Origin: a virus
Lineage: Duplodnaviria; Heunggongvirae; Uroviricota; Caudoviricetes
Strand: one strand, 5' to 3'
Virus record (IMG/VR): IMGVR_UViG_2526164666_000046
DNA length: 26,551 nt
Part shown: positions 1-26,551 of the stretch, piece after piece
Layout: each line of letters opens with the position of its first letter
How positions within the stretch are numbered: the stretch's first letter is position 1
Notes under the pieces: generated by a model
Databases searched by the model: none
Seen by the model: only the letters and a program-made list of their open reading frames with translations
Told to the model about the DNA's origin: nothing
Position numbers and translations under genes: made by a program

Positions 1-90
1 CCCACCGCTGACGTGGTGTATGACACACCCGTTGTGATTTTTCCATCTGGTACATACCCCGTCTCCCGTTATCCGGAAGCTGACAACAAT

Positions 91-119: not shown

Positions 120-131
120 CCTGACTCCCCG

Positions 132-404: not shown

Positions 405-444
405 GGGATTTTCTCGTCGAAAGATGTGATTAAGAAAGTTGCCG

Positions 445-624
445 CTAAATGAGCGGCTCTTCGGGTTTGCTTCCGGCTGACTGACTGGCGCTGATTTTCT
501 CAGCGGCCCTTTTTGCAATCTGTCTGCGCCAGACGTCACGCATGGCCCGGTATCCACCCGAGAGGAGATACAGCACACAGACCACCGTACAGAAGTACAG
601 CATTAACTGGTTCAGAAATGTCAT
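445..624 (-). CDS. Small single-pass membrane protein (59 aa, MTFLNQLMLYFCTVVCVLYLLSGG...)
   Basis: Below the 60-aa cutoff of the ORF track; ATG at 624-622 with GGAAAG 8 nt upstream, stop TAG at 447-445; one hydrophobic helix followed by a basic tail. Function unknown. Confidence 0.4.
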   Translation of the reverse strand: MTFLNQLMLYFCTVVCVLYLLSGGYRAMRDVWRRQIAKRAAEKISASQSAGSKPEEPLI

Positions 625-722
625 AATTTCTTTCCGTTATTGTTGACAATAAGAACTGTTTTCATTAAAAAACCAGAGTACGAAAGTATCGTTCCTTTAT
701 TTTTTCTCCATAGGTATCACCA

Positions 723-758
723 CCGCCAGCGTCCATTCCTGTCGCTGGCGGTTTTTTT
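723..758 (+). terminator. Strong plus-strand intrinsic terminator (9-bp GC stem + T7) in a minus-strand intergenic gap
   Basis: CCGCCAGCG (723-731) / loop 732-742 / CGCTGGCGG (743-751) followed by TTTTTTT (752-758). Not usable as a minus-strand terminator (no U-tract on that side). Confidence 0.5.
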
Positions 759-759
759 A

Positions 760-1446: not shown

Positions 1447-2699
1447 CGGAAGGCGATGACGGGCGCACCTCTGATACTGTCGATGATGCCCCCGCGTTTA
1501 GCGCCACTCTTCCCGCATGGCGCAAAATCGCCGTTGCCAGGACGGCCGGAAATAATCCCGCGGCGAGCCCATGAACTGAAATGGCTCGCCCTGTCCTGTG
1601 ACGTCCAGGTGGCTGAGCTGTCACGCCATTTCGAACCGTAATATCCGATACCCGGAATGTCCGGGTCTTCTTCCGGTTTGTTCGTCGGCACATTCACCCC
1701 GTTCTCATCCGTCATGAACGGTACGAAATGGATATTCTTTTCCGTTTTGTTTTTGTAGCTGCCGTACACCGTCTGGTACGAGGATTCGTTCTTCTGCTTC
1801 CAGAAATACGTCGTATCTCCACATATCCAGGGAACACCGCCAGCAGAGCCACCGACGCACTGACCTGCCATATCCGCCAGGTCTGCACGGAATTTATCAA
1901 CCAGCGCACCAAACTGTGCTGCGTGATTTACCGGCGTACCGCCAAAATCAAATTCCCCCTGCATCCACACCACGGCAAACAGCACATTTTTCGGGTTCTT
2001 CTTCAGTGCTGCTTTTGTTCGACCGATAAGGTCCTTATACAGCGGCTTGTCCACACCCCAGCGGGTTGAATTCTCCGAGGCACCACTCGCGTCACTGTAT
2101 GTGCCATCGGCTCCGGTGGTGAACGCTGAACCACCACGACAGCACGGAACCAGCAGAATGCCCGCATTCGCCGGTATAAACGGCAGCAATTTTTTGGCGA
2201 TATGCAGCCCTTGCCCCACGGTTCCGTACTGCCCCTTTGACAGGTCCGCTTTCGGATGGTTAAGGCGGCTCATGTCCTGCACATCATGCAGACAATGGTC
2301 CGCCGGAATGATGTCGTTATATTTGCATGCTGCACCGCCCGGTGTCACCGTACTGCGGCGCGCCAGCTGCTTAATACGCGGGTCCGGACGGTCATATGTC
2401 TCCGGCAGCGGAAGGCCTTCACCATATGCCATGCTGTTTGACTGCCCCGCCAGAACCACAACAAAGTAATACTCCGTGTCTCTGGTGGCGCTGATTACTG
2501 TGCCTTCTCCATCCGACGGCTTCACCAACACAGGTGTGGTGACATCACCTTCCGCCGCAATGGCCTGCATCAGAGTATAAGGCGTGATGGCCACCGGACT
2601 ACCAAACGGCTGCCAGCCCTCTTTCAGTTTGTGTGTCAGCTTTTCCGCAAGGTCTGACGGCGACGCCGCCCTGACAACATCATAATGTTTAATCGACAT
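1380..2699 (-). CDS. DUF1737 + SGNH-type esterase, NanS-p-like sialate O-acetylesterase (prophage late-region accessory gene)
   Basis: ATG at 2699-2697 (MSIKHYDVVRAASPSDLAEKLTHKLKEGWQPFGSPV, DUF1737-like N-terminus) with GGGAG 8 nt upstream; esterase block VVVLAGQSNSMAYG (GQSN catalytic-Ser motif). The last ~80 codons (R/C-rich) look out of frame. Family assignment from memory of prophage NanS-p proteins. Confidence 0.65.
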   Translation of the reverse strand: MSIKHYDVVRAASPSDLAEKLTHKLKEGWQPFGSPVAITPYTLMQAIAAEGDVTTPVLVKPSDGEGTVISATRDTEYYFVVVLAGQSNSMAYGEGLPLPETYDRPDPRIKQLARRSTVTPGGAACKYNDIIPADHCLHDVQDMSRLNHPKADLSKGQYGTVGQGLHIAKKLLPFIPANAGILLVPCCRGGSAFTTGADGTYSDASGASENSTRWGVDKPLYKDLIGRTKAALKKNPKNVLFAVVWMQGEFDFGGTPVNHAAQFGALVDKFRADLADMAGQCVGGSAGGVPWICGDTTYFWKQKNESSYQTVYGSYKNKTEKNIHFVPFMTDENGVNVPTNKPEEDPDIPGIGYYGSKWRDSSATWTSQDRASHFSSWARRGIISGRPGNGDFAPCGKSGAKRGGIIDSIRGAPVIAFRCRSHRRREHCSLTLPASQREA

Positions 2700-2925
2700 C
2701 GAATTTCTCCCGTGTACAGGAACAGAGTTAAAAAGCGGAACCGGAATCAAATTACAGGATGGCCATCTGCCAGTGGCTGGTCGTAAAAAAAAGGCCAACG
2801 CCATGCGCAGCCGGAAATAAAGGGATAACGATGATAGTTTGAGAAAAACAGAAACAACACTTTTGTGGCAAAGCATGGTGCCGGGTGCCTCCCGGTGAAT
2901 TCAGTATCAGCACCTGAATCCGCGA

Positions 2926-3577
2926 TTATCCCATATACCTGGTTGCTGATCGCCCCTCCGCACAGGGGGATTCACCATGCAGTAGTATTTTTAATAAACA
3001 GTAAACAAAAAAATCAAGCATTATGCAGGCTGTTTCTTTTATCACCGGCCACAGCAATACCACAATGCCGCAGACCAGCACCCCATCCGCCAGCACCGAC
3101 ATGATTCTGCTGGTGAAATCCACCATCACCACCAGAAACAGCAGGAGTGCAGCCACAGCCAGGCGCAGTTTTACCGCACAGGTGATTCTCCAGACGAAGA
3201 CCCAGAACACCGGCAATCTCTTCCAGCACCTTGCGCTCTTCCGGCTCAATTTCGCCGTCTGCCTCCGCAATGGCCACCGCCACATCCAGCACATCTTCCG
3301 CTTCACGCGTATCGTGTTTCACATCCTCGATCTCACGTAACGCCGCACGACGTACCATTTAAGTTCGTATCCAGCTGACCGATAATGGTTGCGCTAATCG
3401 CATTAATTTCTGACGTAAACGCGGACAGCGCAGGCTGATTACGCAGTACCTGTTCGATCTTCGCTTTCTAGGAAGCCTCACATTCACCATCTGCACAGGC
3501 CACCAGGTAGGCAGCATTAATAACCGCCTGTGCCAGATCGCGTTTCTCAAACTTTCCTTTTTCCGGTTAACATGACA
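2926..3577 (-). pseudogene. Decayed TerB-domain (tellurite-resistance TerB-like) gene followed by a hydrophobic segment
   Basis: TerB-like sequence is split over three frames: ...KGKFEKRDLAQAVINAAYLVACADGECEAS, in-frame TAG (plus 3468-3470), KAKIEQVLRNQPALSAFTSEINAISATIIGQLDTN, frameshift near 3340-3358, VRRAALREIEDVKHDTREAEDVLDVAVAIAEADGEIEPEERKVLEEIAGVLGLRLEN, then another shift into a transmembrane-like stretch (2926..3306 ORF). No intact start codon. Confidence 0.5.
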
Positions 3578-3671
3578 TACCAATAACTCTTGTCTAAAAA
3601 GCCAGCAAGATAAAAAGCCAGTATTCACGACCACCAGCGTGTTTACTGTACTGCACAAGGTTTACAGGTAC

Positions 3672-3689
3672 AAAAAAACCGCTCAGCGG
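3672..3689 (-). terminator. Putative minus-strand intrinsic terminator (candidate tR'-like site)
   Basis: Minus strand reads CCGC-TGA-GCGG followed by U7 (plus A-run 3672-3678). Short stem, so low confidence. Confidence 0.35.
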
Positions 3690-3814
3690 CGGGTTTAAGT
3701 TGTGTGGCGAAGTAACCACTCTTAACACGATATAATACTTTTTGCGTACGCGTTAGGATTTTTATAAACTATGCGTCCCCATTCTCGCTATCTTTAGTCG
3801 GTCCTGGAATACAC

Positions 3815-4261
3815 ATGAAAGTTAGAAGCATAGGATTTACAATAAATAACAATAACAAAAATATTAATACCGTTGACGTAATGAATGCTTTTATCAACGC
3901 ATCAAACAGAGAACACAGTCGCACAGACTATACTCGTAAAATTCTCATTTCGGATGTGAATGATTTCTATTATGGATTAGTTGTCACATTCAGAAACCAA
4001 AAAAAGAACTGTAAGTCGCAATTTGTTGATGGTAAATTCCAGCTTAAAATTGAAGATCTTCAAGGAAGTGACAAACTTGCTAATTTCAACTTTTTCTTAA
4101 TTAAAAAATCTAATCTTTCTGGTCTCTATATGTATCACCACGGTTCATGCAGTCTGAACACTCTCTTTTCTCATTTAGAAACAATAAGTAATGAATTTAT
4201 CAGAAATCAAAATAAAGAAGAAATAAAAAACTTGGTGATAAACCAAAACAAAAAGAAGTAA
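3815..4261 (+). CDS. Hypothetical protein (148 aa), first gene of the AT-rich Q-proximal cargo cassette
   Basis: Very AT-rich ORF with Asn/Lys-rich composition; TATAAT-like box about 80 nt upstream. Its frame and the next ORF's frame are both open across an A6 run (4225-4230), so this may be the N-terminal part of a ~270-aa protein. Confidence 0.45.
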   Translation: MKVRSIGFTINNNNKNINTVDVMNAFINASNREHSRTDYTRKILISDVNDFYYGLVVTFRNQKKNCKSQFVDGKFQLKIEDLQGSDKLANFNFFLIKKSNLSGLYMYHHGSCSLNTLFSHLETISNEFIRNQNKEEIKNLVINQNKKK

Positions 4262-4305
4262 CTGCAATAAATAAAAAATACAAAGAAAGACTGACTTTCA
4301 GCCTT

Positions 4306-4629
4306 ATGACAAATAAAAACAACATTCAGAGTGTTTTATGTCAATTCAAAGAGATTAAAAGCACAAGCTTTAAATTTAATTATATAGATTTTAAAGGTGG
4401 ACCAATGACTGCGCTTGAACAATTTGTTAACACCACCACAATAGATATGAATTTTAATTCTAGCGACAGAACAAAAGTGCAACAACTATCTCAGAATCTT
4501 TCAAATATTTATAATTCTATGAGTGGAGTTGCTAAAGCACAGGTTATTGCAGTAAACCATGCAGGAATAGAAAAAACCATTGATTTTATGAACTGCCCTG
4601 TTTTTTTGAAACATACGATTTCGATATAA
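4306..4629 (+). CDS. Hypothetical protein (107 aa), possibly the C-terminal part of the preceding gene
   Basis: Weak RBS; its frame is open upstream to 4216 and overlaps the end of the 3815..4261 frame. Same composition as its neighbours. Confidence 0.4.
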   Translation: MTNKNNIQSVLCQFKEIKSTSFKFNYIDFKGGPMTALEQFVNTTTIDMNFNSSDRTKVQQLSQNLSNIYNSMSGVAKAQVIAVNHAGIEKTIDFMNCPVFLKHTISI

Positions 4630-4725
4630 TTGCCGATAAAGTCAATGGATTGACAAACGATAATTATACAACAAACCCTGTTTTTGATATGATAAAAGAA
4701 GAAATGCTGAACGGGACGAATAAAA

Positions 4726-5274
4726 ATGCCTTTATATGAATGGCTAATAAATAAAAGATTGAGGTATCAGTACCTTACACTGCTTGCATTCTCGATCCTG
4801 GCATTGCTTGCACTTTACCTATTGTACAGAAACACACCTAAAGTAAGTGTTAACTTTTTTGAGTTTTATCATAAAAACTTACGAGGCTATCTCTTCTCCG
4901 GTTTTATTTCCGTGGGCTCATTTTTATTGAGCCTGCATACCTTTGTCATAATAAATTTACGCGATAAGGTTTTTGCAACTCAGGAATATAAGGAAATTTA
5001 TAGCATTGCCACTGGTATACCTATTGACAAAATCAATGATAGTGTACTTTATAAACCTTTAGACAATTTATCCTCATTTATTAATACATCAATATTATGT
5101 TCTATCACAACAGCAATTGCACAATTCACTATTGGACTTTCAACTAATTTATATGCATGCTTATTTTGCGTATGGCTTGCAATACTAACGGTATTTCTTT
5201 TATTACATTGCCTCATCATAATCAGACAAAATATTAAAATTTTATTAAAGCAACAGAGAAAAAAAGGGGGGTAA
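4726..5274 (+). CDS. Four-helix integral membrane protein (182 aa), last gene of the cargo cassette
   Basis: Four hydrophobic segments (YQYLTLLAFSILALLALYLLY; LFSGFISVGSFLLSLHTFVII; ILCSITTAIAQFTIGL; LYACLFCVWLAILTVFLLLHCLIII) and a basic C-tail; stop lies in the loop of the hairpin at 5266-5281. Confidence 0.55.
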   Translation: MPLYEWLINKRLRYQYLTLLAFSILALLALYLLYRNTPKVSVNFFEFYHKNLRGYLFSGFISVGSFLLSLHTFVIINLRDKVFATQEYKEIYSIATGIPIDKINDSVLYKPLDNLSSFINTSILCSITTAIAQFTIGLSTNLYACLFCVWLAILTVFLLLHCLIIIRQNIKILLKQQRKKGG

Positions 5275-8172: not shown

Positions 8173-8822
8173 GCCGCCATCTCCCTGACCAGTTTTTCCG
8201 CCTGCTGGCGAACCTGCGCCAGAAAGGCCTCACCACATGCCTCAAGTTCATCGCGCCCGATGTAGCTGATTGCCGGTCCCTTCCAGGTCTTGTCGAAAAC
8301 AGCAATAGCACCAGCGAAGAAAGCTCCTGTCGGCACCTGCTTCTCGTCCTTCGGTATAAACCAGGCAGGCAGTTCAAAACCAATACGCCCGCGAATAAAA
8401 GCAATATGATCTGCATCTTCCGGCCACCACACTTCGCTGGTGGCAGCTTTGATCAGGAAAACATAGCGCCCGCCTTTATCACGCATGGCACTGGCATGTT
8501 TCATGATGTAACGCATGCCGGTAATGTATTGCCCCTCATGCTGACTGGCACGGCTGTATGGGGGATTACCAAAGGCAGCACCTTTAAGCTCCGCAAGACG
8601 TTCTGACCAGTCGTGCGCCAGCGCGTTGTCTTCCGCCGTGTAATACGCGGCACATTTGGCGTTATCACCGTCAGTAAACAGATCCAGAACAAACGGGCCA
8701 AACAGGGTGTTCATTCCCCAGAAAATGTTGTCCGGCGTGCGCCACTGATCGCCCACTTCCTTCAGTTCATGGGCTGGTTTGTTCCGCAGTTCCACCAGCT
8801 CCTGGCAATATTTATTACTCAT
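8169..8822 (-). CDS. Phage N6-adenine DNA methyltransferase (Dam-type, orphan)
   Basis: AAFGNPPYS (NPPY catalytic motif); start at Met12 of the track ORF (8822), overlapping the upstream stop by 1 nt (TAATG). Confidence 0.8.
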   Translation of the reverse strand: MSNKYCQELVELRNKPAHELKEVGDQWRTPDNIFWGMNTLFGPFVLDLFTDGDNAKCAAYYTAEDNALAHDWSERLAELKGAAFGNPPYSRASQHEGQYITGMRYIMKHASAMRDKGGRYVFLIKAATSEVWWPEDADHIAFIRGRIGFELPAWFIPKDEKQVPTGAFFAGAIAVFDKTWKGPAISYIGRDELEACGEAFLAQVRQQAEKLVREMAA

Positions 8823-9316
8823 TAAGCCCCCACGTAATTCCCTGACAGATACCACTCATCACCCGATGCAGCGCGCTTGCTGCTTTTCCGTAAGCACCGC
8901 TCACGACGCGCCAGAAAATTGTTTCGTTCTGGCTGGGAGTGGCTTTCACGGAATGCCGACATCCACACGGTTGCAGCACGACGGTATAAGCCCCTGGACT
9001 CCAGTTCTTCAGCCTGGCGGGTCAGGCACAAAATCACCCGGGGATCGTTAGTGCCGACATAGAAATTGCGCACAGGTCTGGTTTCTCGAACTGGTTGTGG
9101 TTCCGGCTCCTGCGCTCTCTCAGTCAGGCGCGGGAAATGTCTGCGTGTATCTCCTTCACAACGGTGAGCCACACGCCCACTCTGACGTAACTTGCTTGCA
9201 GACTGCAGAACGCGCTGCCGTGAGTAACCTGTAAAAGCATCTGCAATGTCTCCGGAAGTACACCCCGGATGGGCTTCAATGAATTTCTGAACTTCATTCA
9301 AAAGACTCATAATCAC
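8822..9316 (-). CDS. Hypothetical phage protein with winged-helix-like N-terminus and PerC/ANR-like C-terminal motif
   Basis: N-terminus MSLLNEVQKFIEAHPGCTSGDIADAFTGYSRQRVLQSASKLRQSGRV; C-terminal AATVWMSAFRESHSQPERNNFLARRERC resembles the ANR/PerC pattern from memory. Low certainty. Confidence 0.4.
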   Translation of the reverse strand: MIMSLLNEVQKFIEAHPGCTSGDIADAFTGYSRQRVLQSASKLRQSGRVAHRCEGDTRRHFPRLTERAQEPEPQPVRETRPVRNFYVGTNDPRVILCLTRQAEELESRGLYRRAATVWMSAFRESHSQPERNNFLARRERCLRKSSKRAASGDEWYLSGNYVGA

Positions 9317-10131
9317 CCCCTGAATCCTGCCGGGATCTGGCTGTAGTCCACGTTGTCGTAACTGGCTTTGAAGTACGGGTCCTCGCGTCTGGCTGCAGAT
9401 ACCGCAGGAACTTCCCAGGGTTCTTCGAAATGACGATCCGGGCCAAAGAACGTGACAGCCTGTTTCACAAATTGTGTGCCGCTGTTACCCATCGCAGATA
9501 CCCAGCCCGCGTAGCGTTTCACACCTTCCAGCATGGTTTCGGGGTTTACCCCCTCATTCAAACGGGCTTTCCAGGCTTTGAAGGCTGCAGATTTTGAATT
9601 GCCACCAGCACGTTTGGGATATACCAGCCATGCCTGCTCAAACTCCGAAGAGTATTCCGGTCGGTTTGAACGAACTCGCACGGACTCATCAACTGATGCA
9701 CCAACAGCTATTGGTTCTTTGACTGGTTCTTTGACTGGTTCAAAAGAGTGACTGGTTCTGGGTGAATCTCCTGCACTACCCCCTGGTGCAACTCCTGCAC
9801 TACCTGGTGAATTTGCTGCACCAGATAGTGAATTATTTGCACTACCCCCTAGTGAATCTCCTGCACCATCCAGATGAAGGAGATAGATATTACTTGAGTT
9901 ACCTTTTTCACCTTTCCGGGTGACTTTTTTTACCAGCCCGGACTCACAAAGGGCCGCAATATGATTCATCACAGAACGTTTGCTAATCTCGCACTGGTCA
10001 GCAATATGCTGGTAGCTGGGCCAGCACTCACCCTGATCGCTGGCATTATCAGCCAGCTTGATCAGAACCAGTTTTCGCAATGGATTACCCACTCGAATTT
10101 TCATCGCTTTAACCATCAGCTCCATACTCAT
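9313..10131 (-). CDS. Replication initiator (lambda O-like) with N-terminal HTH and internal iteron-encoding linker
   Basis: N-terminal IRVGNPLRKLVLIKLADNASDQGECWPSYQHIADQCEISKRSVMNHIAALCESGLV (HTH); Gly/Ser/Ala/Pro-rich linker with EPVKEPVKEP encoded by direct DNA repeats; lies between the immunity region and nin-type genes. Exact start uncertain (10131/10125/10116). Confidence 0.6.
   Translation of the reverse strand: MSMELMVKAMKIRVGNPLRKLVLIKLADNASDQGECWPSYQHIADQCEISKRSVMNHIAALCESGLVKKVTRKGEKGNSSNIYLLHLDGAGDSLGGSANNSLSGAANSPGSAGVAPGGSAGDSPRTSHSFEPVKEPVKEPIAVGASVDESVRVRSNRPEYSSEFEQAWLVYPKRAGGNSKSAAFKAWKARLNEGVNPETMLEGVKRYAGWVSAMGNSGTQFVKQAVTFFGPDRHFEEPWEVPAVSAARREDPYFKASYDNVDYSQIPAGFRG
9712..9870. 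repeat. Iteron cluster / putative prophage origin of replication inside the O-like gene
   Basis: TGGTTCTTTGAC x2 (9712-9735); four ~20-bp iteron-like copies GGTGAATCTCCTGCACTACC (9761), GGTGAATTTGCTGCACCAGA (9806), AGTGAATTATTTGCACTACC (9827), AGTGAATCTCCTGCACCATC (9851). Confidence 0.5.
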
Positions 10132-12820: not shown

Positions 12821-13231
12821 TAAAAGAAACATGCCGCAGGCAAGATTAAACAAAATTTGGTTGTAACACGGCGTATGGCACATGCGTCGTTAGCGGTCTG
12901 GGGACGTTAAAGGGGACAATCCACTCCTTGCTCGGGCAAAAAAACCAGGTAGCCGGAATGTGCAAGTCAATGATGATGCTGATAAGACGCCTAACCAGCG
13001 CGGCGATCCGGTTTGACGCCTGGGAAGAGACCAGGGTGCAACGATGAGGGCATTTATGGAACCGCGACAAAGTGTGGTGCCGTAACTTGCTAAGTGCTCT
13101 CAGCGTTGTGGTAATCCGCGAAATGGCGCGGCGGTAAGTATGGCGGGGTTACTCTTTCCCCGTTGAGGACACCGGATTGTCAGGTTGACCATACGCCTGA
13201 GTGACAACCCCACCACAACAGCCACTGCTTT

Positions 13232-13278
13232 GGCGGTACCAGTTTGTACACTTGCTTCCGGCTGGTACCGCTCTTTTT
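13232..13278 (+). terminator. Hairpin + T-tract (terminator or structured RNA element) in the long pL leader
   Basis: GGTACCAG (13235-13242) / 19-nt loop / CTGGTACC (13262-13269) followed by GCTCTTTTT (13270-13278). Confidence 0.4.
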
Positions 13279-13416
13279 ACAAAACAGAGAAGAGCATCAC
13301 CGGACGACGGGCTCATAACCCAATCCAGCCGGGCGGCTGCCACCGCAGGTGTTCTTCTCTGTTTTGTGGAGAAACCAACCGACCTTGCAGGGTCGATATG
13401 ATGAGGAGCAGCAAAA

Positions 13417-13778
13417 TGGCTAGCGAACGCAGTACTGATGTGCAGGCATTTATCGGGGAGCTGGACGGCGGCGTATTTGAAACCAAAATCGGCGCAGTTC
13501 TCAGTGAAGTCGCTTCCGGTGTGATGAACACGAAAACCAAAGGTAAGGTCTCGCTCAACCTGGAAATCGAACCGTTTGATGAGAACCGTGTGAAAATCAA
13601 ACACAAACTCTCATATGTTCGCCCGACTAACCGCGGGAAAATTTCCGAAGAAGACACCACCGAAACGCCGATGTATGTCAATCGCGGTGGTCGACTGACT
13701 ATTCTGCAGGAAGACCAGGGACAATTACTGACTCTTGCCGGTGAACCTGACGGAAAACTCCGCGCAGCAGGTCATTAA
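13417..13778 (+). CDS. Hypothetical early-left protein (120 aa)
   Basis: ATG at 13417 preceded by GAGGAG 7 nt upstream (MASERSTDVQAFIGELDGG...); the track ORF's 5' extension to 13185 lacks an RBS and crosses the hairpin. Confidence 0.45.
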
Positions 13779-13843
13779 TATCGTTCTTAATTAACTGATT
13801 ATTTATCTCATCACTGAATATCTTTATATAGTGAGGACTTATT

Positions 13844-14668
13844 ATGTCTCAGAACTTAGACGCAACCGCAATTAATCAAATCCATGCCCTTATTTCTGCT
13901 CAGGGTGTTAATGAAATTATCAGTAATATTGGTGCCGATGCTGTGGCATTGCCTGAGAATTTCCGCATTCATGATCTGGAAAAATTTAATTTAAATCGCT
14001 TCCGTTTCCGTGGTGCGCTTTCCACTGCCAGCATCGATGACTTTACCCGTTATTCTAAAGATCTTGCAGATGAAGGCACCCGCTGCTTTATCGATGCCGA
14101 TAATATGCGAGCCGTCAGTGTGCTTAACCTGGGTACTATTGATGAACCAGGTCACGCAGATAACACCGCCACCCTCAAACTGAAAAAGACAGCACCGTTT
14201 TCTGCTCTGTTGTCTGTTAATGGCGAGCGTAACTCCCAGAAGTCACTGGCAGAATGGATTGAAGACTGGGCCGACTACCTTGTGGGCTTTGATGCTAATG
14301 GTGACACCATTCAGGCAACCAAAGCGGCTGCGGCAGTCCGTAAAATCACAATTGAAGCAAACCAGACCGCTGATTTTGAAGACAATGACTTCAGCGGCAA
14401 ACGCTCCCTGATGGAGTCTGTCGAAGCGAAGACCAAAGACATTATGCCAGTGGCATTTGAATTTAAATGCGTTCCGTTTGAAGGCCTGAAAGAACGTCCG
14501 TTTAAATTACGCCTCAGCATTATCACTGGCGATCGTCCTGTACTGGTTCTGCGCATTATTCAGCTGGAAGCGATGCAGGAAGAAATGGCTAACGAATTTC
14601 GTGATCTGCTTGTTGAGAAATTCAAAGACAGCAAAGTAGAAACCTTTATTGGTACTTTCACCGCCTGA
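13844..14668 (+). CDS. yfdQ: DUF2303-type prophage protein (YfdQ-like, 274 aa)
   Basis: Length (274 aa) and position directly upstream of a 178-aa HD-domain gene match my memory of the CPS-53 yfdQ-yfdR pair; symbol given on that basis, not on a computed alignment. Confidence 0.55.
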
Positions 14669-18310: not shown

Positions 18311-18520
18311 GTGGGGCTGGATTGCGTACCTATATCAACCTACTGCCGCAACGCGGGAGAAACGGTTGATGCCGTTAACAAACGGATACAAAGAGGAATA
18401 TGGAAAGAAGGGGTACATGTATTAAAAGTCGACGGGGTTAAAGAGCGTTGGGTCGACTTAATAGAGGTTTCAAAATGGGCAAGAAAGAACAAGGATTATT
18501 ATCTCTGCCAAGAGGAGTAA
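18311..18520 (+). CDS. Excisionase-like protein (Xis)
   Basis: Small winged-helix-like ORF (…VDAVNKRIQRGIWKEGVHVLKVDGVKERWVDLIEVSKW…) immediately upstream of and overlapping the integrase gene; GTG start with GAGGTG RBS. Confidence 0.5.
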   Translation: MGLDCVPISTYCRNAGETVDAVNKRIQRGIWKEGVHVLKVDGVKERWVDLIEVSKWARKNKDYYLCQEE

Positions 18521-19650
18521 CTATTCGTAAGCATAAAACTGCTTCAACACTAGTTATCACTTTCACATATAAAGGGGTTCTTTGCAGGGAGCCCCTATCT
18601 CGGCTTGAGGCAAATACACGTGGTATAAAATATGCTGAGCGCCTGCTAGGGGAGATACAAAATCAGATCGCCAGCGGAACGTTTGAATATGCGAAATATT
18701 TCCCCAATTCCAAAAAACTGGAGTTATTCGGTGTAGTAAAGAAAACCAAAAATATTAAGTCCTATCTTGATGAATACCTGAAAATTTGCATAAACCGTAA
18801 TCTGTCGCCGTCAACCATTGGCGGTTACGAAAAATGTCTATCAGCACTATCAGAACTACATAAACTACATGTAACAGAATTGACGCCTGCGATACTAAAA
18901 AATTGGATAGCCAGCCGAAAAACTAAGCTGAAAACAATCAGGAATAACCTGTCATTTCTGCGCAGCGCCATTGATGAAGCTGTTACGGATGGCCTGCTGA
19001 CCATTAACCCGGTAACCCTCGTCAGCGCCAGCCGGTACCACGTGATCGACAGTAGCCCGAGCGCCGACGATTACGAGGTTGACCCGTTCACGCCAGCGGA
19101 GACCCTTGCCATTTACCAGAGCTGCAGGTACAGGGAATGGGAAAACCTGTTCCGCTTTGCTTTCAATACAGGTCTGCGGAGCTCAGAACTGTGCGCGCTG
19201 CGCTGGGCTGATCTCGACACCATCGCGAACACAGCCCACGTTCAGGCGGCCAGTGTCGTAGGGGTACTTAAAGGCACCAAGACAAAAGCCGGTACCCGTA
19301 AGGTGGAGCTGAACAGTGAGGCGCTGGCAGCCCTGCAGGCGCAGAAGCAATACACCTTTATGAAAAGTGAGTTCATATTCAGCGATCCGAAAACGGGAGA
19401 ACCCTGGACGAACGCCGACGCTATCCGTAAAAAAGCATGGGTGCCGACCCTGAAAAAAGCTGGTGTGCGCTACCGTAACCCGTACCAGACGCGCCACACA
19501 TTCGCCACCAGACACATTAGCCAGGGTGTAAACCTTTTCTGGCTTGCCGGGCAGATGGGGCATAAGGGGCCGGAAATGCTGTTCCGCAATTACGGTAAAT
19601 ACCTGGCTGAATACGATGGTAAAACGTCTATAAATGTTGTGTCAAGCTGA
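18475..19650 (+). CDS. Lambda-type tyrosine integrase with N-terminal arm-binding domain
   Basis: Catalytic-domain pattern ...LRSSELCALRWADLD..., ...RHTFATRHISQGVNLFWLAGQMGHKGPEMLFRNYGKYL (R..H..R..Y region); terminal position in the early-left operon after xis. Confidence 0.85.
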   Translation: MGKKEQGLLSLPRGVTIRKHKTASTLVITFTYKGVLCREPLSRLEANTRGIKYAERLLGEIQNQIASGTFEYAKYFPNSKKLELFGVVKKTKNIKSYLDEYLKICINRNLSPSTIGGYEKCLSALSELHKLHVTELTPAILKNWIASRKTKLKTIRNNLSFLRSAIDEAVTDGLLTINPVTLVSASRYHVIDSSPSADDYEVDPFTPAETLAIYQSCRYREWENLFRFAFNTGLRSSELCALRWADLDTIANTAHVQAASVVGVLKGTKTKAGTRKVELNSEALAALQAQKQYTFMKSEFIFSDPKTGEPWTNADAIRKKAWVPTLKKAGVRYRNPYQTRHTFATRHISQGVNLFWLAGQMGHKGPEMLFRNYGKYLAEYDGKTSINVVSS

Positions 19651-20093: not shown

Positions 20094-20117
20094 CCTCCCA
20101 TGCGGAGGTCTTTTGTT
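20094..20117 (+). terminator. Hairpin + U-rich tail between the leader ORF and the membrane-protein gene (attenuator-like)
   Basis: CCTCC-CATGC-GGAGG followed by TCTTTTGTT; 16 nt upstream of the ATG at 20133. Confidence 0.35.
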
Positions 20118-20132
20118 ATAGGAATCAATAAG

Positions 20133-21041
20133 ATGGCGAGAACATTAGTCAACGTCAGCGCTACAATTTTTGCTCTAATGATGATTGTCAGAGCACTTTT
20201 TACTTATATCTACCCTGGAAAACTACCATTTAGCATCGCCATCATTGATTGGCTGATCGTCATTGCTGGTTCTGGTGCAGCAATATCTTCTATCTTCTGC
20301 TTCATCAAAAAACGCTATCCAGACACTGCAGAATTTCTTCCTATGTTCAGCACTGTTTGTTATGTGATTATCCTTATTGGATATGCAATTTTAAGGTACA
20401 CACCGGCCTATCAAACATCGCTTTCGATCATGGTTACAGGAATGCTCGTTGGAATGGGATGGTGGATACAATGCATAACGTCCGCTGCTAACACGCGCAG
20501 GTCCCACACGCTGAACATGATCATTAACACCCGAACAAGCCCGGAGTACCAAAAACAGCTTCGGAACAGCACCAAATTCTATCGGGGCATGCGTTATGTA
20601 CCACAAGAACTATCAGAGTGGCGCTGCAACCCAGACAAAGAAGAATACAAGAATATGAAGGTCCCCGATGAGTACAGGGATGCCATCAATGGCCTTTTAT
20701 ATATTCTTAATTATTTCGAGTTTCTTGCGCAGGGTATCAAGTTCAAGGATTTGGATGACGAATTACTGAGGGAGTGCTTCTCCAGCTTCTTACGCGGGAT
20801 AGAACGTCGTGGCTTCCACATGATCTTAGAGTCTCAGAAACAGGACCCTGCAGCCTTTGAAGGAATAATCTACCTTTCAAAAAAATGGAACGGAACATCG
20901 TTTGTTGAAACCCACCGTTCCAACCCTAATACGGTTGAGCTCGGGGTTCCATATCCTTCAAACGATATGGTTGAAAAAATGGTTCAAGGTCAGCCGTTAA
21001 TAGATAGCGACGCAGGGCCGGAACTTCAAGTGGCCACTTAA
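20133..21041 (+). CDS. Membrane protein: four N-terminal TM helices + ~170-aa cytoplasmic C-terminal domain (303 aa), unknown function
   Basis: Start taken at MARTLVNVSATIF (20133), not the track's 20100; four hydrophobic segments, then a soluble domain with no recognisable motif; AT-rich island between two integrases. Confidence 0.5.
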   Translation: MARTLVNVSATIFALMMIVRALFTYIYPGKLPFSIAIIDWLIVIAGSGAAISSIFCFIKKRYPDTAEFLPMFSTVCYVIILIGYAILRYTPAYQTSLSIMVTGMLVGMGWWIQCITSAANTRRSHTLNMIINTRTSPEYQKQLRNSTKFYRGMRYVPQELSEWRCNPDKEEYKNMKVPDEYRDAINGLLYILNYFEFLAQGIKFKDLDDELLRECFSSFLRGIERRGFHMILESQKQDPAAFEGIIYLSKKWNGTSFVETHRSNPNTVELGVPYPSNDMVEKMVQGQPLIDSDAGPELQVAT

Positions 21042-21175: not shown

Positions 21176-21339
21176 TTTTTAGTTGTTTGAAGTTCAATGA
21201 AGTCTACTAAGCCCACACAGCACAAGCTCTGCGGGCTTTTTTACGTCTATTGTCGTCCAGTGAGAATTGCTGAGAACTACGAGTTATGGCACCCTGAATG
21301 GGACCCACTAAGAAGGGTCCAAAAACCGAGGGTCCCAAA

Positions 21340-22560
21340 ATGGCAAAAATCGCTAAGAAGCTCACTGACACTGAAATCAAAAGCACCAAGCCAGCCGATA
21401 AAGAAATCAACTTGTTTGACGGTGATGGTCTGATTCTACGAATCGCTCCTTTGGCGAAAGGAGGCAAGAAAAATTGGTATTTCAGGTATGCAGTACCCGT
21501 GAGCAAGAAAAGAACCAAAATGAGCCTTGGGACATATCCTCACCTTACCCTTGCAAGAGCCAGAGCCTTACGTGATGAATATCTCTCCTTTCTGGCAAAT
21601 GGTGTTGATCCCCAAATCCATAACAACGATAAGGCGAAGGCATTAAAGAGTGCTACTGAGCACACTCTCCAAGCCGTAGCGCGGAAATGGTTAGATGAGA
21701 AGGTAAAGACATCAGGTATCTCACAAGACCATGCAGCAGACATCTGGCGCAGCTTAGAGAGAAATGTCTTTCCCGGTCTGGGTAATGTCCCTATCCGACC
21801 TAAGCTCTTAAAACAACACCTTGATCCTATTGAGCAACGAGGCGTATTGGAAACTCTACGCCGTATCATTTCACGTCTGAATGAAATCTTCCGGTGGGCA
21901 GCTACTGAAGAACTTATTGAGTTCAACCCGGCTGACAACCTTGGTCAAAGATTCAGTAAACCAAAAAAGCAAAATATGCCTGCCCTTCCCCCAAGCGAAT
22001 TGCCAAGGTTTATGGAATCTTTGACGAATGCGTCAATCCGGTTGGAAACACGTATGCTAATTGAATGGCAATTGTTGACATGGGTTCGTCCGGGTGAAGC
22101 CGTTCGCGCAAGGTGGTCTGATATTGATACAACCAACAGCATTTGGAACATTCCTGCTGATTTCATGAAAATGAAAAAGCTTCACAAAGTTCCTTTGAGT
22201 AAAGAAGCTTTGCGCATCCTTGAATTAATGAAATCAATAAGTGGGCATAGAGAATGGGTTTTCCCCAGCATAAAAGCGCCTCTTAATCATATGCATGAAC
22301 AAACAGCCAACGCAGCTATCATCCGAATGGGGTTCGGAGGCGAGCTTGTAGCTCACGGTATGCGTTCTATTGCACGAACAGCGGCAGAGGAGTCTGGTAA
22401 ATTCAGAGCTGAAGTTCTTGAGGCAGCGCTTGCCCACTCGAAAAAAGATGAAATTATCGCAGCATACAATCGTGCAGAATATCTGATAGAGCGACAGAGT
22501 TTGATGCAATGGTGGAGTGATTACGTTCAAGCTCAAAGATCAAATGCTCTGGTAGCCTAA
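21340..22560 (+). CDS. P4-type tyrosine integrase (IntA/CP4-57-like)
   Basis: MAKIAKKLTDTEIKSTKPADKEINLFDGDGL... closely parallels the remembered IntA N-terminus; C-terminal HGMRSIARTAA...ALAHSKKDEIIAAYNRAEYL catalytic region; RBS GAGGG 8 nt upstream of the ATG at 21340. Confidence 0.85.
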   Translation: MAKIAKKLTDTEIKSTKPADKEINLFDGDGLILRIAPLAKGGKKNWYFRYAVPVSKKRTKMSLGTYPHLTLARARALRDEYLSFLANGVDPQIHNNDKAKALKSATEHTLQAVARKWLDEKVKTSGISQDHAADIWRSLERNVFPGLGNVPIRPKLLKQHLDPIEQRGVLETLRRIISRLNEIFRWAATEELIEFNPADNLGQRFSKPKKQNMPALPPSELPRFMESLTNASIRLETRMLIEWQLLTWVRPGEAVRARWSDIDTTNSIWNIPADFMKMKKLHKVPLSKEALRILELMKSISGHREWVFPSIKAPLNHMHEQTANAAIIRMGFGGELVAHGMRSIARTAAEESGKFRAEVLEAALAHSKKDEIIAAYNRAEYLIERQSLMQWWSDYVQAQRSNALVA

Positions 22561-23233
22561 GTATCAGAATAGCTAATATAATCCTGAAGGTAAAGAAAAT
22601 GGAAACCCTATTCAAAGTTTTTGAAAAATTTAGTTCCAGACCACTTTTTTTATTTTTTTCGGACTCTCACTTTGTGAATTTTTTCAGAAACAATCTGTTC
22701 TGATGAATCCATCAGCAGATAACATCGCGAAATTATTCGCAGCCATGATATTAGTTGTTTTTTTACTTGGGGATTTGAATGGCTAATCTTCAAGTTCAAT
22801 GTAAACCTTGAACCTCATGATCAAGGCGATATTGGACCAACAATTGGAACGGCTACTTTAGCTGTATACTTAGTTTATGCCTTTCACTTTCTCAGTGAAA
22901 ATCCTGAAGCATTAAATTTAAAGTTATTAACTAACTCTGGCTTTATATACAGCACAACTCTATTATTATTCTCATTAGAATGCATGAAGCTTAGAAGACT
23001 TAAACAAAAATAAACAACATCATTGTGATGATAAATATAAAATAGGCATGGCGAAAAAAAATCACCACGCCTAAAATATAATAATTATGGTAGCATCATT
23101 GATACATAATCCACACCAATCCTTGAGCTATACTGAGACGCTATAGCCTGATATCTTTCTGCATAACCAGTTCTCAGTTGAGATTTAAGTTTGAGTCGGA
23201 CAGGAACATTTTGCACGTTGCCATCCATATTAC

Positions 23234-24832
23234 TTAAAAACACGGCAGAAATAATATTTTTTCTTCGCCATCAACTGTTGTTCCATGATTCAACACCACC
23301 ATATAATCAACAACAGGAAGCGTTTTATCCCCTTCGAAAATAGAGAGATATTTTCTTTGATTTTTATGCATTACATATATATATTTCGAATGTTCAGCAA
23401 ATGGCAATGCTTTACTCTGACTGGCGTTAAAAAGCTCCAGAACTTTAATGAGCCTGTGCGGACTTAATCTTACATGGTGAGGGTCGTTACCCTGAGTAGG
23501 AACCAAATCACATGCCGCAGATACACATAAATACCATTTGTTCGACTCTGTATCAAAGAAAATAGTGCCAGTAGAAATATGACCATCTTCAAAATTCTTT
23601 GAAGACAAATTCATATTTAAAGCATGATACATTTCGTGATAAGTATCATTATTTGATGGCAGATCCATTTTTGAAGAGCAATATTGGAGCAATGCAGCAA
23701 CTCCGCTGTTAGCGTATTCATTTGAATAGCTATCAAAAACACTTTTGATAAATTCATCCAGCGTATTATTATTTTTAAGTCTTTGATAAAGCTCTTCTGA
23801 TAAATTACCAAATACAAAGTCAATATTTCTACATCTAATATCAGGCGAGTCTGATTTTAATATCTCATTTAACCACGCAGCTTGACCGTAATGATCGTTA
23901 GCCAAATGATTTACAAAAGATAAAGCCTCAGCTTCGATTGCATTCTGAATTTCAGATTTTATTAACTGATAATAAGATGGTTTCCATTCAATGAGAGAAT
24001 CATTGAGAGTTTGCCAAATCCTATCTCCATCGTTTTCATGATCATCTTGAACCTTATGAAATAGGGAGACAAAGATATTACCACATTGAATCCATTTTAC
24101 TCCGCTTTCATCACCCCGAATGACATTGCCAGATGTGTTGCTAGAAATAATTGCATTTCTAGACACAGCATATTCTGCAATCATTTTTGCAATGAAGTTT
24201 TTATCCTTTTGATCCTCCAACACAGCATCATCATGTATTAATCTTTTAATTCTTCTACAAGGCTTACTGTCTTTAATATAGGCTATTATTTCATCTCTTG
24301 TGAGAGCTTTATTACCATTATCATTTAAGTTCGGTAATACAACGTCTTCCCAATAACTTTGGACATCTTCATTATCGTAGTCAATGATCAAGCTGTTGAT
24401 ATCCAGAGCACCTTTGAGAGTCGATGATATCTGCATCCAAACCGTTTCTAAATTCTCTCTAGTATATATTACAATCATATTTAAATGATCGGAGTCTTTC
24501 AAATCTTGTAATAGTTTAAGTGTTTTATCAGGTGCATTATTATCAAGATGATAATCTACAATAATAAGATCTGATTTTCTAATCCGATCCACATCGAAAT
24601 TAACAGAACCATTGTCAACATCACAAATCATATTTTTAGATTGAAAAAAGCTCTCAAGAGTAGCGGCTCGTTTAGATGAGTCAATTTTGTTGTAGTCTAA
24701 ATCAACTTCGTTATTCAACGCCCTGATTGATTCAGAATACGTCAGAAAATCGTCATCAATCATGACAACGGAACGAATTGCATTTTCGCAGAAAGTTTTC
24801 TGGACAAGAGAATTATAATTTGCCACTGTCAT
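23234..24832 (-). CDS. Receiver (REC)-domain protein fused to a ~400-aa uncharacterised C-terminal domain (532 aa); candidate effector of a two-component-type module
   Basis: N-terminal REC-like pattern: SVVMIDDD (acidic pocket), DLIIVDYHL (phospho-acceptor Asp position), NMIVIYT (conserved Thr position). ATG at 24832 with GGAG 7 nt upstream, 1 nt after the kinase stop. Very AT-rich. C-terminal domain unrecognised. Confidence 0.6.
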   Translation of the reverse strand: MTVANYNSLVQKTFCENAIRSVVMIDDDFLTYSESIRALNNEVDLDYNKIDSSKRAATLESFFQSKNMICDVDNGSVNFDVDRIRKSDLIIVDYHLDNNAPDKTLKLLQDLKDSDHLNMIVIYTRENLETVWMQISSTLKGALDINSLIIDYDNEDVQSYWEDVVLPNLNDNGNKALTRDEIIAYIKDSKPCRRIKRLIHDDAVLEDQKDKNFIAKMIAEYAVSRNAIISSNTSGNVIRGDESGVKWIQCGNIFVSLFHKVQDDHENDGDRIWQTLNDSLIEWKPSYYQLIKSEIQNAIEAEALSFVNHLANDHYGQAAWLNEILKSDSPDIRCRNIDFVFGNLSEELYQRLKNNNTLDEFIKSVFDSYSNEYANSGVAALLQYCSSKMDLPSNNDTYHEMYHALNMNLSSKNFEDGHISTGTIFFDTESNKWYLCVSAACDLVPTQGNDPHHVRLSPHRLIKVLELFNASQSKALPFAEHSKYIYVMHKNQRKYLSIFEGDKTLPVVDYMVVLNHGTTVDGEEKILFLPCF

Positions 24833-24833
24833 A

Positions 24834-26551
24834 TTAGAACTCCACTCCATTGAACTGGATCACAAAATTAGCGCCATCTTTTATTAAATAGTTATCGCCT
24901 TCATCAGGTTCTGAATACCATATTTTATGATGTGCAACAGCAAGGTTTTCTCGACATAGATACAGACCTACCCCATGTCCATTTGCTCTTTTGCTATAAA
25001 ATAGTTCAAATAGTCGCGGGATATCATCGGTATCAATTGCCGGACCAGAATTTGCTATGATAACCAAAGAATTCACAAAACCAATCTTTATGAGCCTATT
25101 ATTTGACAGACTGACCCAATACATTGCATTGTTGATAATATTAGTAAAAACAGGATAGATCCTTAATGGTATATCTGTTATTGCGATTTGCTTAAACTCT
25201 TCACTAAATTCAATAGTTATTCGTTGCCGTTCGAAACGCTCCCCAAAGAACTTCAGGACATAATCCATGATATTTTTTCCAGTTATTCTCTGCCTGGATT
25301 GATAACCTGATATTTTCAAAGGTGATAAGAAACGTATTTGTTGAGTAAGCGATCTGTGAGCATTTAACGCCAATGAAAAACCAGGGTGTTCTTTTACAGA
25401 AGTAGGAAGAGAGTTTAGTCCTCTGGTTACCATAGAATCCATTTCTTCAAGTTCATGAGATATTATCTCAACACTAATACCTAACTGTGCAAGCGCGTTT
25501 AAACTTTTAGCTTTTTCTTCAAAATATGAGCGTTCTTCTTCAGATAATGAGAATGCTGAATCTAAGTTTATACCTTCAAATAATCTATCGAGACCTTTTA
25601 TTATTGATTGATATTTGAAAGTTAGGGTATCAACTGACTCAACATATAAACTATCGAGCAAATTAAACACATTTTCAATTTGTGAATCATTATCTATTGA
25701 ATCAACAACTGATATAGTTTTAGCATAATAATCACTTCGATCAACCTTTATTTCATCGGCCCATTTTTTTAAAAGAGAATGTATCTTCTCCTCTATCGTG
25801 TTATTAAACTTAGTTAGTTTAGAATTAATAATACCTTGATTTTTTCAAGGTGATTTTTCGCTGACAATGAAGGCTCAAGTTTATTTAATTCAGAATCAAG
25901 TTTATTAATTGCTAACTTCATTTGTAGAATATACGCAGAGAACTCATTAAATTTATCTCTGTAGTCTCTATATTTCTCTTCATACATTCCAAGTTTTGGA
26001 GGTTTGATAGGCGTTTTAATTTCACTGCGCAACGCATCTAAGTTTGTAAGATCACTGTCTATAATTTTAAGATAGTTTAAATCTAACGAACCATCAGTTT
26101 TATCAAGCTTAGTTTTCAGCCTTTTAACAGCCTCCAAGGAAGCATCAAGAACTGGTGTCTGATTCTTCAAAGCTTCTGAAAAACTTTTTTGTGTTGATTT
26201 TCGAGCTTGTTGTTGAGCAGATTTTCTTAACTCTTTTTCACGCTTAACTTGTTCTAAAAGCTCTTTACGGTCATCAGAACGTGAACCAAAAAATCTATCA
26301 GCAAGTTCAGTTAACAAATTAGATATAATAGTTTTCAGTTCTCTTGCAGCCTGGTTTCTTATGAATCCCTCTCTCCCCGACTTATCTTTCAGCTCTTTAT
26401 TACTGGATTGAGTAATTCCAATATAACCAAAAATCCTTCTATTAGACCAATAATATCGCCCTGCATTCCATGAACGTCTTTCTTCTATCTGGAAGAAATC
26501 ATTATCTACTCGACCATAAGGTAATACTCTCAAGCTATCCCTAAAAATCAT
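24834..26551 (-). CDS. Sensor histidine kinase (HisKA H-box + HATPase_c), 5'-partial at the window edge, reading frame interrupted at an A6 run
   Basis: Downstream part (frame open 25844..24834, no start codon) carries H-box IISHELEEM, N-box FTNIINNAMYW, G1 IANSGPAIDTDD, G2 GHGVGLYL. Upstream part (26551..25814, continues beyond window) ends 30 nt after the frame switch. One extra A in the minus-strand A6 run (plus 25840-25845) would fuse both into one ORF of at least 580 aa. Confidence 0.6.

Follow-up and report, generated by a model that had tools for sequence, protein, structure and literature searches.

The protein examined here is a response regulator-like (RR-like) protein encoded in a 26,551 nt stretch of Caudoviricetes DNA (IMG/VR record IMGVR_UViG_2526164666_000046), the whole of which is referred to as the window. 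The part of this protein that lies beyond its receiver, residues 285–582 (window 23088–23980), is best explained as a family-specific output module of a phosphorylation-controlled protein, which belongs to a methylase-linked system that is driven by a paraMORC-type kinase and related to the Ambrosia defence system. The evidence comes from the domain anatomy of the protein, the conservation of its phospho-acceptor, the fusion of the module to the receiver in the complete proteins inspected, the linkage of methylase, kinase and RR-like genes, and the homology of the kinase to the Ambrosia protein AbrB. The family is not new, as it has been named and flagged as a defence candidate; it is the larger half of the protein that had been left unannotated.

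The RR-like gene and its reading frame

ORF calling on the window identified a 538-codon open reading frame (ORF) on the minus strand at 23234–24850, which overlaps the end of a second minus-strand ORF (24834–25670), and a third ORF (25814–26551) reaches the window edge. The N-terminus of the 538-codon ORF matched the Pfam family Response_reg_2 (PF19192; residues 25–181) with a score of 109.4 bits, well above the cutoff of 27 (E = 3e-31). This is a genuine gene, the E. coli member of the family.

In reference genomes the RR-like protein is 582 aa in length (WP_000214985.1 and WP_000214990.1). The annotated start corresponds to window position 24832, at M7 of the window ORF and 1 nt past the stop codon of the kinase gene, and the true stop codon is found at 23085–23087, where it is reached in another frame after position 23256. 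A 1-nt contraction at 23256 (T7 to T6 on the plus strand) disrupts codon N526 and leads to the false stop at 23234, which is thus an artefact of the loss of one nucleotide from a homopolymer. The match to PF19192 was unchanged in the corrected 582-aa protein.

The RR-like gene is carried by 573 of 5426 complete E. coli genomes, and was present at 99% identity or above in 559. All complete copies listed are one base longer than the window copy, and the product is 582 aa in every copy for which the annotation was inspected (O26 strain 11368, enterotoxigenic E. coli (ETEC) isolate ETEC-2264 and P0001). Among the complete genomes listed, none was identical to the window across this gene, the best match being 99.9% identical and one base longer.

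The wider region (window 22561–26551) was matched in 586 of the 5426 genomes, with at least 99% identity in 562 of them (O26, O103, O111, ETEC and others). When compared with E. coli O26:H11 11368 (locus L001), this 4-kb stretch was found to differ by only four 1-nt contractions in T7 or T8 runs, at 22644, 22757, 23256 and 25839, and by zero substitutions. The contractions frameshift all three genes of the integrase islet that carries the RR-like gene, namely those for a 138-aa protein (twice), the RR-like protein and the kinase-like protein, the last being a single 572-codon gene (24834–26551) that is broken into two ORFs by the contraction at 25839. Four of the seven homopolymers of 7 nt or longer are contracted in the islet, compared with none of five in the 9 kb upstream. 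Four contractions without substitutions point to homopolymer sequencing error, with real slippage mutation as the alternative.

Architecture and conservation of the RR-like protein

An AlphaFold2 model of the 582-aa protein was built from 38 homologues (mean predicted local distance difference test score (pLDDT) 82.7; predicted template modelling score 0.76), and conservation was assessed across 94 aligned sequences of only 20–50% identity. The coordinates of all parts of the protein, which are collected in Table 1, were confirmed by translation. The model indicates that the receiver fold extends to approximately residue 284, with a helical insertion ahead of strand 5, and the genuinely extra part of the protein is residues 285–582. 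The initial annotation had set a domain of about 400 aa at 23234–24400, and both of these ends have been moved, as the receiver runs to around residue 284 and the protein ends at 23085. The lower boundary at 23234 therefore cut off the last 57 residues, including the most conserved motifs, QLRxxYAxR and SRIGVDF.

The receiver active-site set (D26, D93, T124 and K260) is invariant in the 94 sequences and is present in full in the window, and D27 is shared by close relatives. The other invariant residues are P285, N406, G422, C441 and R571, and a further set (W283, C436, A479, L553, Y557, A558, R560, G573 and D575) is conserved in at least 90% of the sequences.

The output module, of about 300 residues, is predicted by the model to consist of two domains, an acidic helical domain followed by a C-terminal beta domain. 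The median isoelectric point (pI) is 5.1 for the helical domain and 7.2, near neutral, for the beta domain, and a classical DNA-binding output is therefore not favoured. The beta domain includes the motifs TTG(T), with the invariant G422, CVxPAC(D), with C436 and the invariant C441 (23510–23512), and QLRxxYAxR, with R560. The tail containing SRIGVDF, which is outside the 23234–24400 interval, ranks with the best-conserved parts of the whole family yet was modelled as disordered, and may act in docking or strand exchange.

Searches for a family or fold

The initial annotation had stated that no family could be recognised after the receiver, and at the sequence level this holds. Searches of Pfam, NCBIfam and PADLOC with the window ORFs and intact orthologues left the RR-like protein unplaced beyond PF19192, and searches of PDB sequences, using either the single sequence or a profile, returned chance matches only (E ≥ 0.35). 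A Foldseek search of the module model against the PDB also gave no significant match (best E 0.057); the structural modelling that had been suggested as a check supplied the domain anatomy. The helical domain could not be matched to any fold. Pfam confirmed that neither a helix-turn-helix nor a PNP-like segment is present in the RR-like protein, and detected no winged-helix, LytTR or other DNA-binding family; PglZ and alkaline-phosphatase domains were likewise not detected. In none of these searches was a regulatory output domain of a well-characterised kind matched with confidence.

The proposed search for conserved residues was productive in that N406, G422, C441 and R571 were found to be invariant in the module, but it gave no recognisable catalytic signature; together with R560, D575 and C436, these residues match no signature of a nuclease, deaminase or phosphatase. 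No motif or fold match to PD-(D/E)xK, HNH, GIY-YIG or PLD nucleases was found in the module.

Some specific readings of the motifs were also considered. A PD-(D/E)xK reading of CDLVP...IKV was ruled out, as the Asp is only 78% conserved and the Lys is not conserved. From the motif pattern only, HALN and CVxPAC were also weighed as a deaminase-like (HxE...PCxxC), Cys-phosphatase (CX5R) or zinc site, and each of these was rejected on the misfit of spacing and partner residues, with H403 conserved in only 73%.

Distribution of the module and its fusion to the receiver

A profile of residues 285–582 was searched against 1.84 billion cluster representatives and matched 549 clusters (50% identity) at E ≤ 1e-3, including 427 at E ≤ 1e-10, across the Proteobacteria. 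Members of the family have also been reported from Bacteroidetes and other phyla (Bellieny-Rabelo et al. 2021; PMC8011034). Among the 150 matches listed, nearly all are 560–680 aa long with the module at approximately residues 280–600. The long outliers tested still begin with PF19192, and the one short match for which the contig was checked starts 48 nt from the contig end. All 94 of 94 closer homologues carry either PF19192 only or no precomputed domain. A module with another N-terminal domain, or standing alone, was not found among the profile matches inspected. In all complete proteins inspected the module is a fixed part of the family, unlike Detocs-type effector domains, which are swappable cassettes.

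Intact loci encode a methylase, a kinase and the RR-like protein

The genetic context of the RR-like gene was examined in about 13 independent loci, alongside the published survey of the family; the scan of the genome collection gave 13 loci, which are mostly close relatives. In every locus with a full-length kinase and sufficient flanking sequence, the RR-like gene follows a gene for a kinase-like protein of 905–990 aa, and a C5 DNA methylase gene (PF00145) is adjacent. In Enterobacterales, this arrangement was found in Pantoea dispersa (L002), in two GenBank loci encoding a protein named from Enterobacter cloacae (L005/L006; Salmonella/Enterobacter), in Citrobacter (L013 and L018), Serratia (L017) and Erwinia (L016), and in a metagenome-assembled genome (MAG; L015). 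Elsewhere it was found in four Acinetobacter loci (L007/L008 and L019–L022), Aeromonas (L009/L010), a Rhodospirillaceae MAG (L024) and a metagenome contig (L003). Most of the full-length kinases include HATPase_c_3, HEF_HK and HATPase_c domains, and the metagenome copy has only HEF_HK and HATPase_c.

The RR-like gene of intact relatives comes last in an operon that is best read as translationally coupled, after the genes for the C5 methylase and for a soluble kinase of about 990 aa with an N-terminal paraMORC-type GHKL module. The genes are tightly packed in Pantoea, where those for the methylase and kinase overlap by 20 nt and the RR-like gene begins 2 nt after the kinase gene. PADLOC identified the methylase from an intact locus as a type II C5 methylase. 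No recognised nuclease is encoded in the Pantoea or Aeromonas operon; in Pantoea the RR-like gene is followed by no other gene before the island edge, and only an unclassified 161-aa gene is near the RR-like gene in Aeromonas. No stand-alone receiver gene, and no antitoxin-like gene conserved beside the RR-like gene, was found in the loci examined.

A variable gene is often located downstream of the RR-like gene on the opposite strand, and its kind differs between loci. An HNH_2 nuclease gene occupies this position in L003, L017 and L020. In L005/L006 (L006 coordinates 8817–9560, minus strand) and L018, the RR-like gene adjoins a gene for a 247-aa protein that includes CVYCGG...REHVPS...CRKCNNG, which by eye is HNH or His-Me finger-like; this protein had no Pfam or PADLOC match. 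The Acinetobacter loci carry an XRE-type helix-turn-helix gene and a gene for a 160-aa protein. A gene for a 138-aa hydrophobic protein is convergent with the RR-like gene in E. coli and in L013–L017, with 53–81% identity in Citrobacter, Serratia, Erwinia and an unclassified Enterobacterales MAG, and it may serve the system of its clade as an accessory or effector component.

The loci are associated with different mobile elements, which are an integrase islet at ssrA in E. coli, a Tn7-like element in Acinetobacter and an island with a relaxase in Pantoea. In Acinetobacter (L007/L008; coordinates 1–3836), the methylase, kinase and RR-like genes are directly downstream of the Tn7-like tnsC, tnsD and tnsE genes, and the system therefore travels there as transposon cargo.

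The linkage was noted previously by Bellieny-Rabelo et al. (PMC8011034), who defined Pfam families for the RR-like and histidine kinase-like (HK-like) proteins and reported 91.6% linkage of the two genes. In that survey, HATPase_c_3 was carried by 83.4% of HEF_HK proteins, the kinase was traced to a paraMORC origin, and restriction-modification genes were enriched around the gene pair, with C5 methylases, Vsr and HNH_2 among the enriched neighbours. The genes had first been noticed through their up-regulation in Pectobacterium during potato infection. Both the survey and the Pfam model cover the receiver part only, and do not address the rest of the RR-like protein.

The kinase is also related to a component of Ambrosia, a validated anti-phage system of Pseudomonas aeruginosa (bioRxiv 10.1101/2025.09.30.679545) that requires all of AbrR, AbrA, AbrB, AbrC and AbrD. 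Its parts are an XRE regulator, an N6 methylase, the HATPase_c_3/HATPase_c kinase AbrB, the 209-aa receiver protein AbrC and an HNH nuclease. When AbrB was aligned with the Pantoea kinase, the GHKL module of this kinase was matched with 33% identity (E = 4e-11), and its R(V)xPYG region was also matched (E = 3e-6).

The window carries a remnant of the system

Of the three-gene system, the window locus retains a truncated remnant. The neighbouring kinase ORF matched HEF_HK (PF19191) with 27 bits against a cutoff of 24.1, and HATPase_c with E = 8e-12 (Pfam). The 572-aa kinase-like protein of E. coli corresponds end to end to residues 419–989 of the 990-aa Pantoea orthologue, with 82% identity, and the N-terminal 418 residues, including the HATPase_c_3 (paraMORC GHKL) module, are missing. 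In the O26 and ETEC-2264 genomes the end of an IS3 insertion sequence is located about 115 bp upstream of the annotated kinase start, and the window ends exactly at this start, with IS3 just beyond in the reference genomes. The same truncated arrangement (window 24834–26551; L001 coordinates 12996–14309) is shared by O26:H11, ETEC-2264 and the other E. coli genomes examined. No methylase gene was found in the window or in L001, L011 or L012, and the window carries no gene for an HNH nuclease, XRE regulator or N6-adenine methylase. The G+C content is 32–35% from around position 22500 to the window end, compared with approximately 45–50% to the left.

One further copy (L012; accession number DAIPZW010000118.1) is on a 5.6-kb contig of a 'Bacteroidales bacterium' MAG. 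In this copy the RR module is 99% identical, the kinase gene is truncated in the same way, and part of the 138-aa protein is present with 100% identity. This contig is probably a binning contaminant.

Proposed role of the module and alternative explanations

In the mechanism that we infer, the C5 methylase would mark the DNA of the cell, and the paraMORC-type kinase would sense foreign or unmodified DNA, or infection, and autophosphorylate at the HEF_HK histidine. The phosphate would then move from this histidine to D93 of the RR-like protein, where phosphorylation, acting via the face formed by helix 4, strand 5 and helix 5 that bears the insertion, would free the C-terminal module. The freed module would be the effector. 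As the modelled beta domain may share the barrel-plus-helix topology of CcdB and MazF, the leading guess is growth arrest through RNA or a topoisomerase as the target.

The methylase-linked two-component system looks like an anti-phage defence system. This context is supported by the homology of the kinase to AbrB, by the location of the loci on integrase islets, a Tn7-like element and a relaxase island, and by DefensePredictor (PMC13092281), which gave WP_000214990.1 a log-odds score of 12.05 and the label 'Predicted novel defense gene'. Two features of the family argue for the module as the effector, which are its fusion to the receiver in every complete protein inspected and the tight operon of C5 methylase, kinase and RR-like genes that, in Pantoea and Aeromonas, includes no recognised nuclease.

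The likeness of the beta domain to the CcdB/MazF fold is a lead and not an assignment. The strand order and the C-terminal helix in the AlphaFold2 model are compatible with this fold, without support from profiles, and, in our reading of the alignments by eye, the glycine opening strand 1 (TTGT) and the [ST]-P after strand 2 (CVSPAC) seem reminiscent of G-[DE]-I and V-L-S-P in MazF. Several results weigh against a toxin-like effector. Besides the Foldseek search of the PDB, in which nothing reached significance and CcdB ranked 35 (E 1.4, TM 0.49, not significant), PemK and CcdB families (PF02452 and PF01845) had no matches in 39 members at E ≤ 10, and a Pfam scan of the 39 diverse beta domains at this threshold revealed no recurrent family. 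The hhalign probability for the beta domain was 0.3% with a MazF/Kid/EndoA profile and 0.1% with a CcdB profile, both profiles being shallow because the homologue searches gave mostly close relatives. Homology to the MazF, Kid or CcdB toxins is accordingly not claimed. None of the module invariants N406, G422, C441 and R571 corresponds to a known catalytic residue of MazF or Kid. In Ambrosia, a separate HNH nuclease is essential, and the variable extra gene of the present loci (two HNH kinds, membrane protein or helix-turn-helix protein) could be the real effector. Finally, a full-length pair from another E. coli, encoding a 989-aa ATP-binding protein and a 607-aa response regulator receiver domain protein with no methylase, was cloned as constructs 2CM2 and 2CMP (PMC13092281), and both were scored as not defensive (defensive = FALSE) in MG1655. 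The absence of the methylase and of an accessory gene from these clones is a candidate explanation for that result.

The claim in the initial annotation that the fused domain is the effector is therefore plausible but unproven, the fixed fusion and the nuclease-free operons speaking for it and the faint toxin likeness, the separate variable genes and the negative clone against. An effector role for the module, with a CcdB/MazF-like toxin as the leading guess, is a real possibility that falls a little short of an even chance. The complete scenario, in which a phosphorylation-gated toxin of CcdB/MazF fold is held by the expanded receiver and fired by a DNA-surveying paraMORC kinase while the C5 methylase marks self, is unlikely as a whole. 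If it were true, this would be a defence system of its own, with a His-Asp phosphorelay linking the detection of foreign DNA to a toxin-like output, and Cys441, Asn406, Arg560, Arg571 and Asp575 would form a previously undescribed active or interaction site.

Instead of acting itself, the module could be a regulatory or adaptor output that binds DNA or a partner (the kinase, the methylase or a fourth-gene product) and switches on the real effector, as proposed for AbrC. Transcriptional induction is the mechanism proposed for Ambrosia, in which abrA and abrD reporters were induced on infection and the AbrC D60A substitution abolished defence (10.1101/2025.09.30.679545), and the essential separate HNH nuclease of that system is in keeping with such a role. 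So are the frequent variable downstream genes (HNH_2, HNH-like, membrane protein, helix-turn-helix plus 160-aa protein), the invariant yet disordered SRIGVDF tail, which resembles a docking motif, and the lack of an obvious catalytic acidic or histidine set in the module. However, no helix-turn-helix or other DNA-binding family was detected by Pfam, the pI values of the two domains are atypical of DNA-binding outputs, Pantoea and Aeromonas show no recognisable effector to be regulated, and AbrC (209 aa) is without the module and is not a member of Response_reg_2, leaving an adaptor role somewhat unlikely. A module acting as the restriction subunit, that is, a DNA endonuclease of unrecognised fold in a phosphorylation-gated restriction-modification system, would account for the tight operon with a type II-like C5 methylase, for the several loci that have no recognised nuclease and for the published enrichment of restriction-modification genes around the gene pair. 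It is quite improbable given that no known nuclease motif or fold was matched, and that no metal-binding acidic cluster is seen among the invariant residues (N, G, C and R), with D442 only 78% conserved. The persistence of an intact RR-like gene without a methylase in the E. coli B1 and enterohaemorrhagic E. coli lineages would also fit with an endonuclease only if this were inert when unphosphorylated. That the pair is an ordinary housekeeping two-component regulator, unrelated to defence, is suggested by the receiver and kinase architecture and by the up-regulation in Pectobacterium during potato infection (PMC8011034), but is highly implausible for genes that are patchy in distribution (573 of 5426 E. 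coli genomes), borne on integrase islets, a Tn7-like element and a relaxase island, and near-universally linked to a methylase in the loci examined. The kinase homology to AbrB, the high DefensePredictor score and the lack of a detected DNA-binding output also speak against a housekeeping role.

A further explanation concerns the window locus and not the module, and holds that this locus is a non-functional relic in which the RR-like gene was stranded on the ssrA islet once the methylase and the sensor half of the kinase had been lost in association with IS3. This is, on balance, probable. Of the 990 residues of its orthologue, the kinase retains only 419–989, an IS3 end lies some 115 bp upstream, methylase genes are absent from L001, L011 and L012, the same truncation recurs in O26:H11 and ETEC-2264, and the RR-like, kinase and 138-aa genes are all frameshifted in the window. 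Against this, the DHp and catalytic domains of the kinase are intact and the RR-like frame is intact in reference genomes, such that the residual pair could still signal, and all four frameshifts are 1-nt homopolymer contractions without substitutions, indicative of sequencing error rather than decay. The system in the window is itself probably inactive, because the kinase N-terminus has been lost beside IS3, there is no methylase, and all three islet genes are frameshifted.

Whichever of these explanations applies to the module, the RR-like family is large, mobile and methylase-adjoining, and its E. coli member is among the strongest unvalidated defence candidates in one machine-learning screen, with over half of the protein left without annotation. 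The domain boundaries, the invariant residues and the three-gene core provide concrete constructs with which to address the relay and the question of methylation-based self-nonself discrimination.

Other features of the window

The islet integrase has a 9-bp in-frame deletion at window 21792 relative to the O26 reference, and, to the left of the islet, 9 kb differs from O26 only by this deletion and one substitution at 21103. A gene for a DUF4760 protein with predicted membrane helices (20100–21041, plus strand) is alone between the prophage integrase gene (18448–19650) and that of the islet. A patch of 31–34% G+C at 3815–5274 (plus strand) includes three ORFs (148, 107 and 182 aa) with no Pfam match. 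This patch is within a lambdoid prophage, flanked by a DUF968/HNHc_6 gene on one side and a DUF1737-SASA (NanS-like) esterase gene on the other, and looks like a moron-type insertion.

Table 1. Coordinates of the RR-like gene, the parts of its product and the neighbouring islet genes in the window
Feature	Coordinates	Strand	Basis and remarks
P4-type tyrosine integrase of carrier islet	21298..22560	+	Pfam; ETEC-2264 islet directly at ssrA
138-aa hydrophobic protein gene, no family	22599..23013	+	Conserved position; broken in window by losses at 22644 and 22757
RR-like gene (Response_reg_2)	23085..24832	-	582 codons once 1-nt loss at 23256 is restored; 559 E. coli genomes at ≥99%
C-terminal tail RIGVDYVSMMLP (aa 571-582)	23088..23123	-	R571 invariant; G573 and D575 in ≥96%; pLDDT <50
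C-terminal beta domain (aa 412-570)	23124..23599	-	About 8 strands, internal helix and C-terminal helix predicted; frame broken at 23256
1-nt contraction site	23256..23256	.	T7 to T6 on plus strand; frame shift at codon N526
Output-module helical domain (aa 285-411)	23600..23980	-	W283-x-P285, SEIQN, GQAAWL, HALN; N406 invariant (23615-23617); acidic
Small hairpin, receiver strand 5 and helix 5 (aa 238-284)	23981..24121	-	Strand 5 ends at invariant K260 (24053-24055)
Helical insertion, 93 residues, between helix 4 and strand 5 (aa 145-237)	24122..24400	-	Model and alignment; acidic, poorly conserved, median pI 4.85
Receiver core, strand 1 to helix 4 (aa 1-144)	24401..24832	-	D26/D27, D93 (24554-24556), T124 (24461-24463)
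Partner kinase-like gene (HEF_HK DHp and HATPase_c)	24834..26551	-	1-nt loss at 25839 splits it into two ORFs

Comparison with known systems

The predicted beta domain differs from CcdB, MazF and Kid (PemK) in that the loop between strands 1 and 2 that includes the catalytic arginine seems to be absent, and in that an extra internal helix and a conserved tail are present in the module. There is also no antitoxin gene, and the domain is fused to a receiver rather than standing alone. A methylase is present in the intact loci as in type II restriction-modification systems, but the module is without a nuclease motif or fold and the methylase is absent from the window.

PorX-type receiver-PglZ regulators and the BREX/Pgl systems provide a precedent for phospho-signalling parts that are common to two-component and methylase-based defence systems, but the RR-like protein includes no PglZ or alkaline-phosphatase domain. 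In Detocs, a two-component phosphorelay controls a fused effector in phage defence, with DtcA as the kinase, DtcB as a buffer receiver and DtcC as a receiver-PNP effector. The present system resembles Detocs in the concept of a two-component phosphorelay over a fused effector. However, the comparison with Detocs implied in the initial annotation does not extend to the components, as the kinase is of the paraMORC type (HATPase_c_3/HEF_HK), there is no buffer receiver, no PNP/PNP_UDP domain or other effector of the Detocs type is present, and the genes are linked to a methylase. PADLOC v2.0.0, which may not contain Detocs models, found no match for the kinase and gave the RR-like protein a weak match to the non-Detocs model C3a59 (E 0.006 and 3e-4).

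Ambrosia shares with the present system a DNA methylase, a soluble kinase with HATPase_c_3 and HATPase_c domains and a receiver protein, as seen in the intact orthologues (the window kinase being without the GHKL module), and some RR-like loci also include an XRE-type helix-turn-helix or HNH gene. However, AbrC has no PF19192 match and no 300-residue module, and hhalign gave a probability of 0.2% against the RR alignment. The methylase is a C5-cytosine enzyme (PF00145) in all intact RR-like loci but an N6-adenine enzyme in Ambrosia, and the HNH nuclease, an obligatory separate gene in Ambrosia, is found in only some RR-like loci. Identity of the two systems was rejected on these differences in receiver protein, methylase type and nuclease requirement.

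The window genes belong to the same family as the RR-like/HK-like pair of Bellieny-Rabelo et al., and the link to a C5 methylase was reproduced. The E. coli kinase differs in being without the HATPase_c_3 module typical of HEF_HK proteins.

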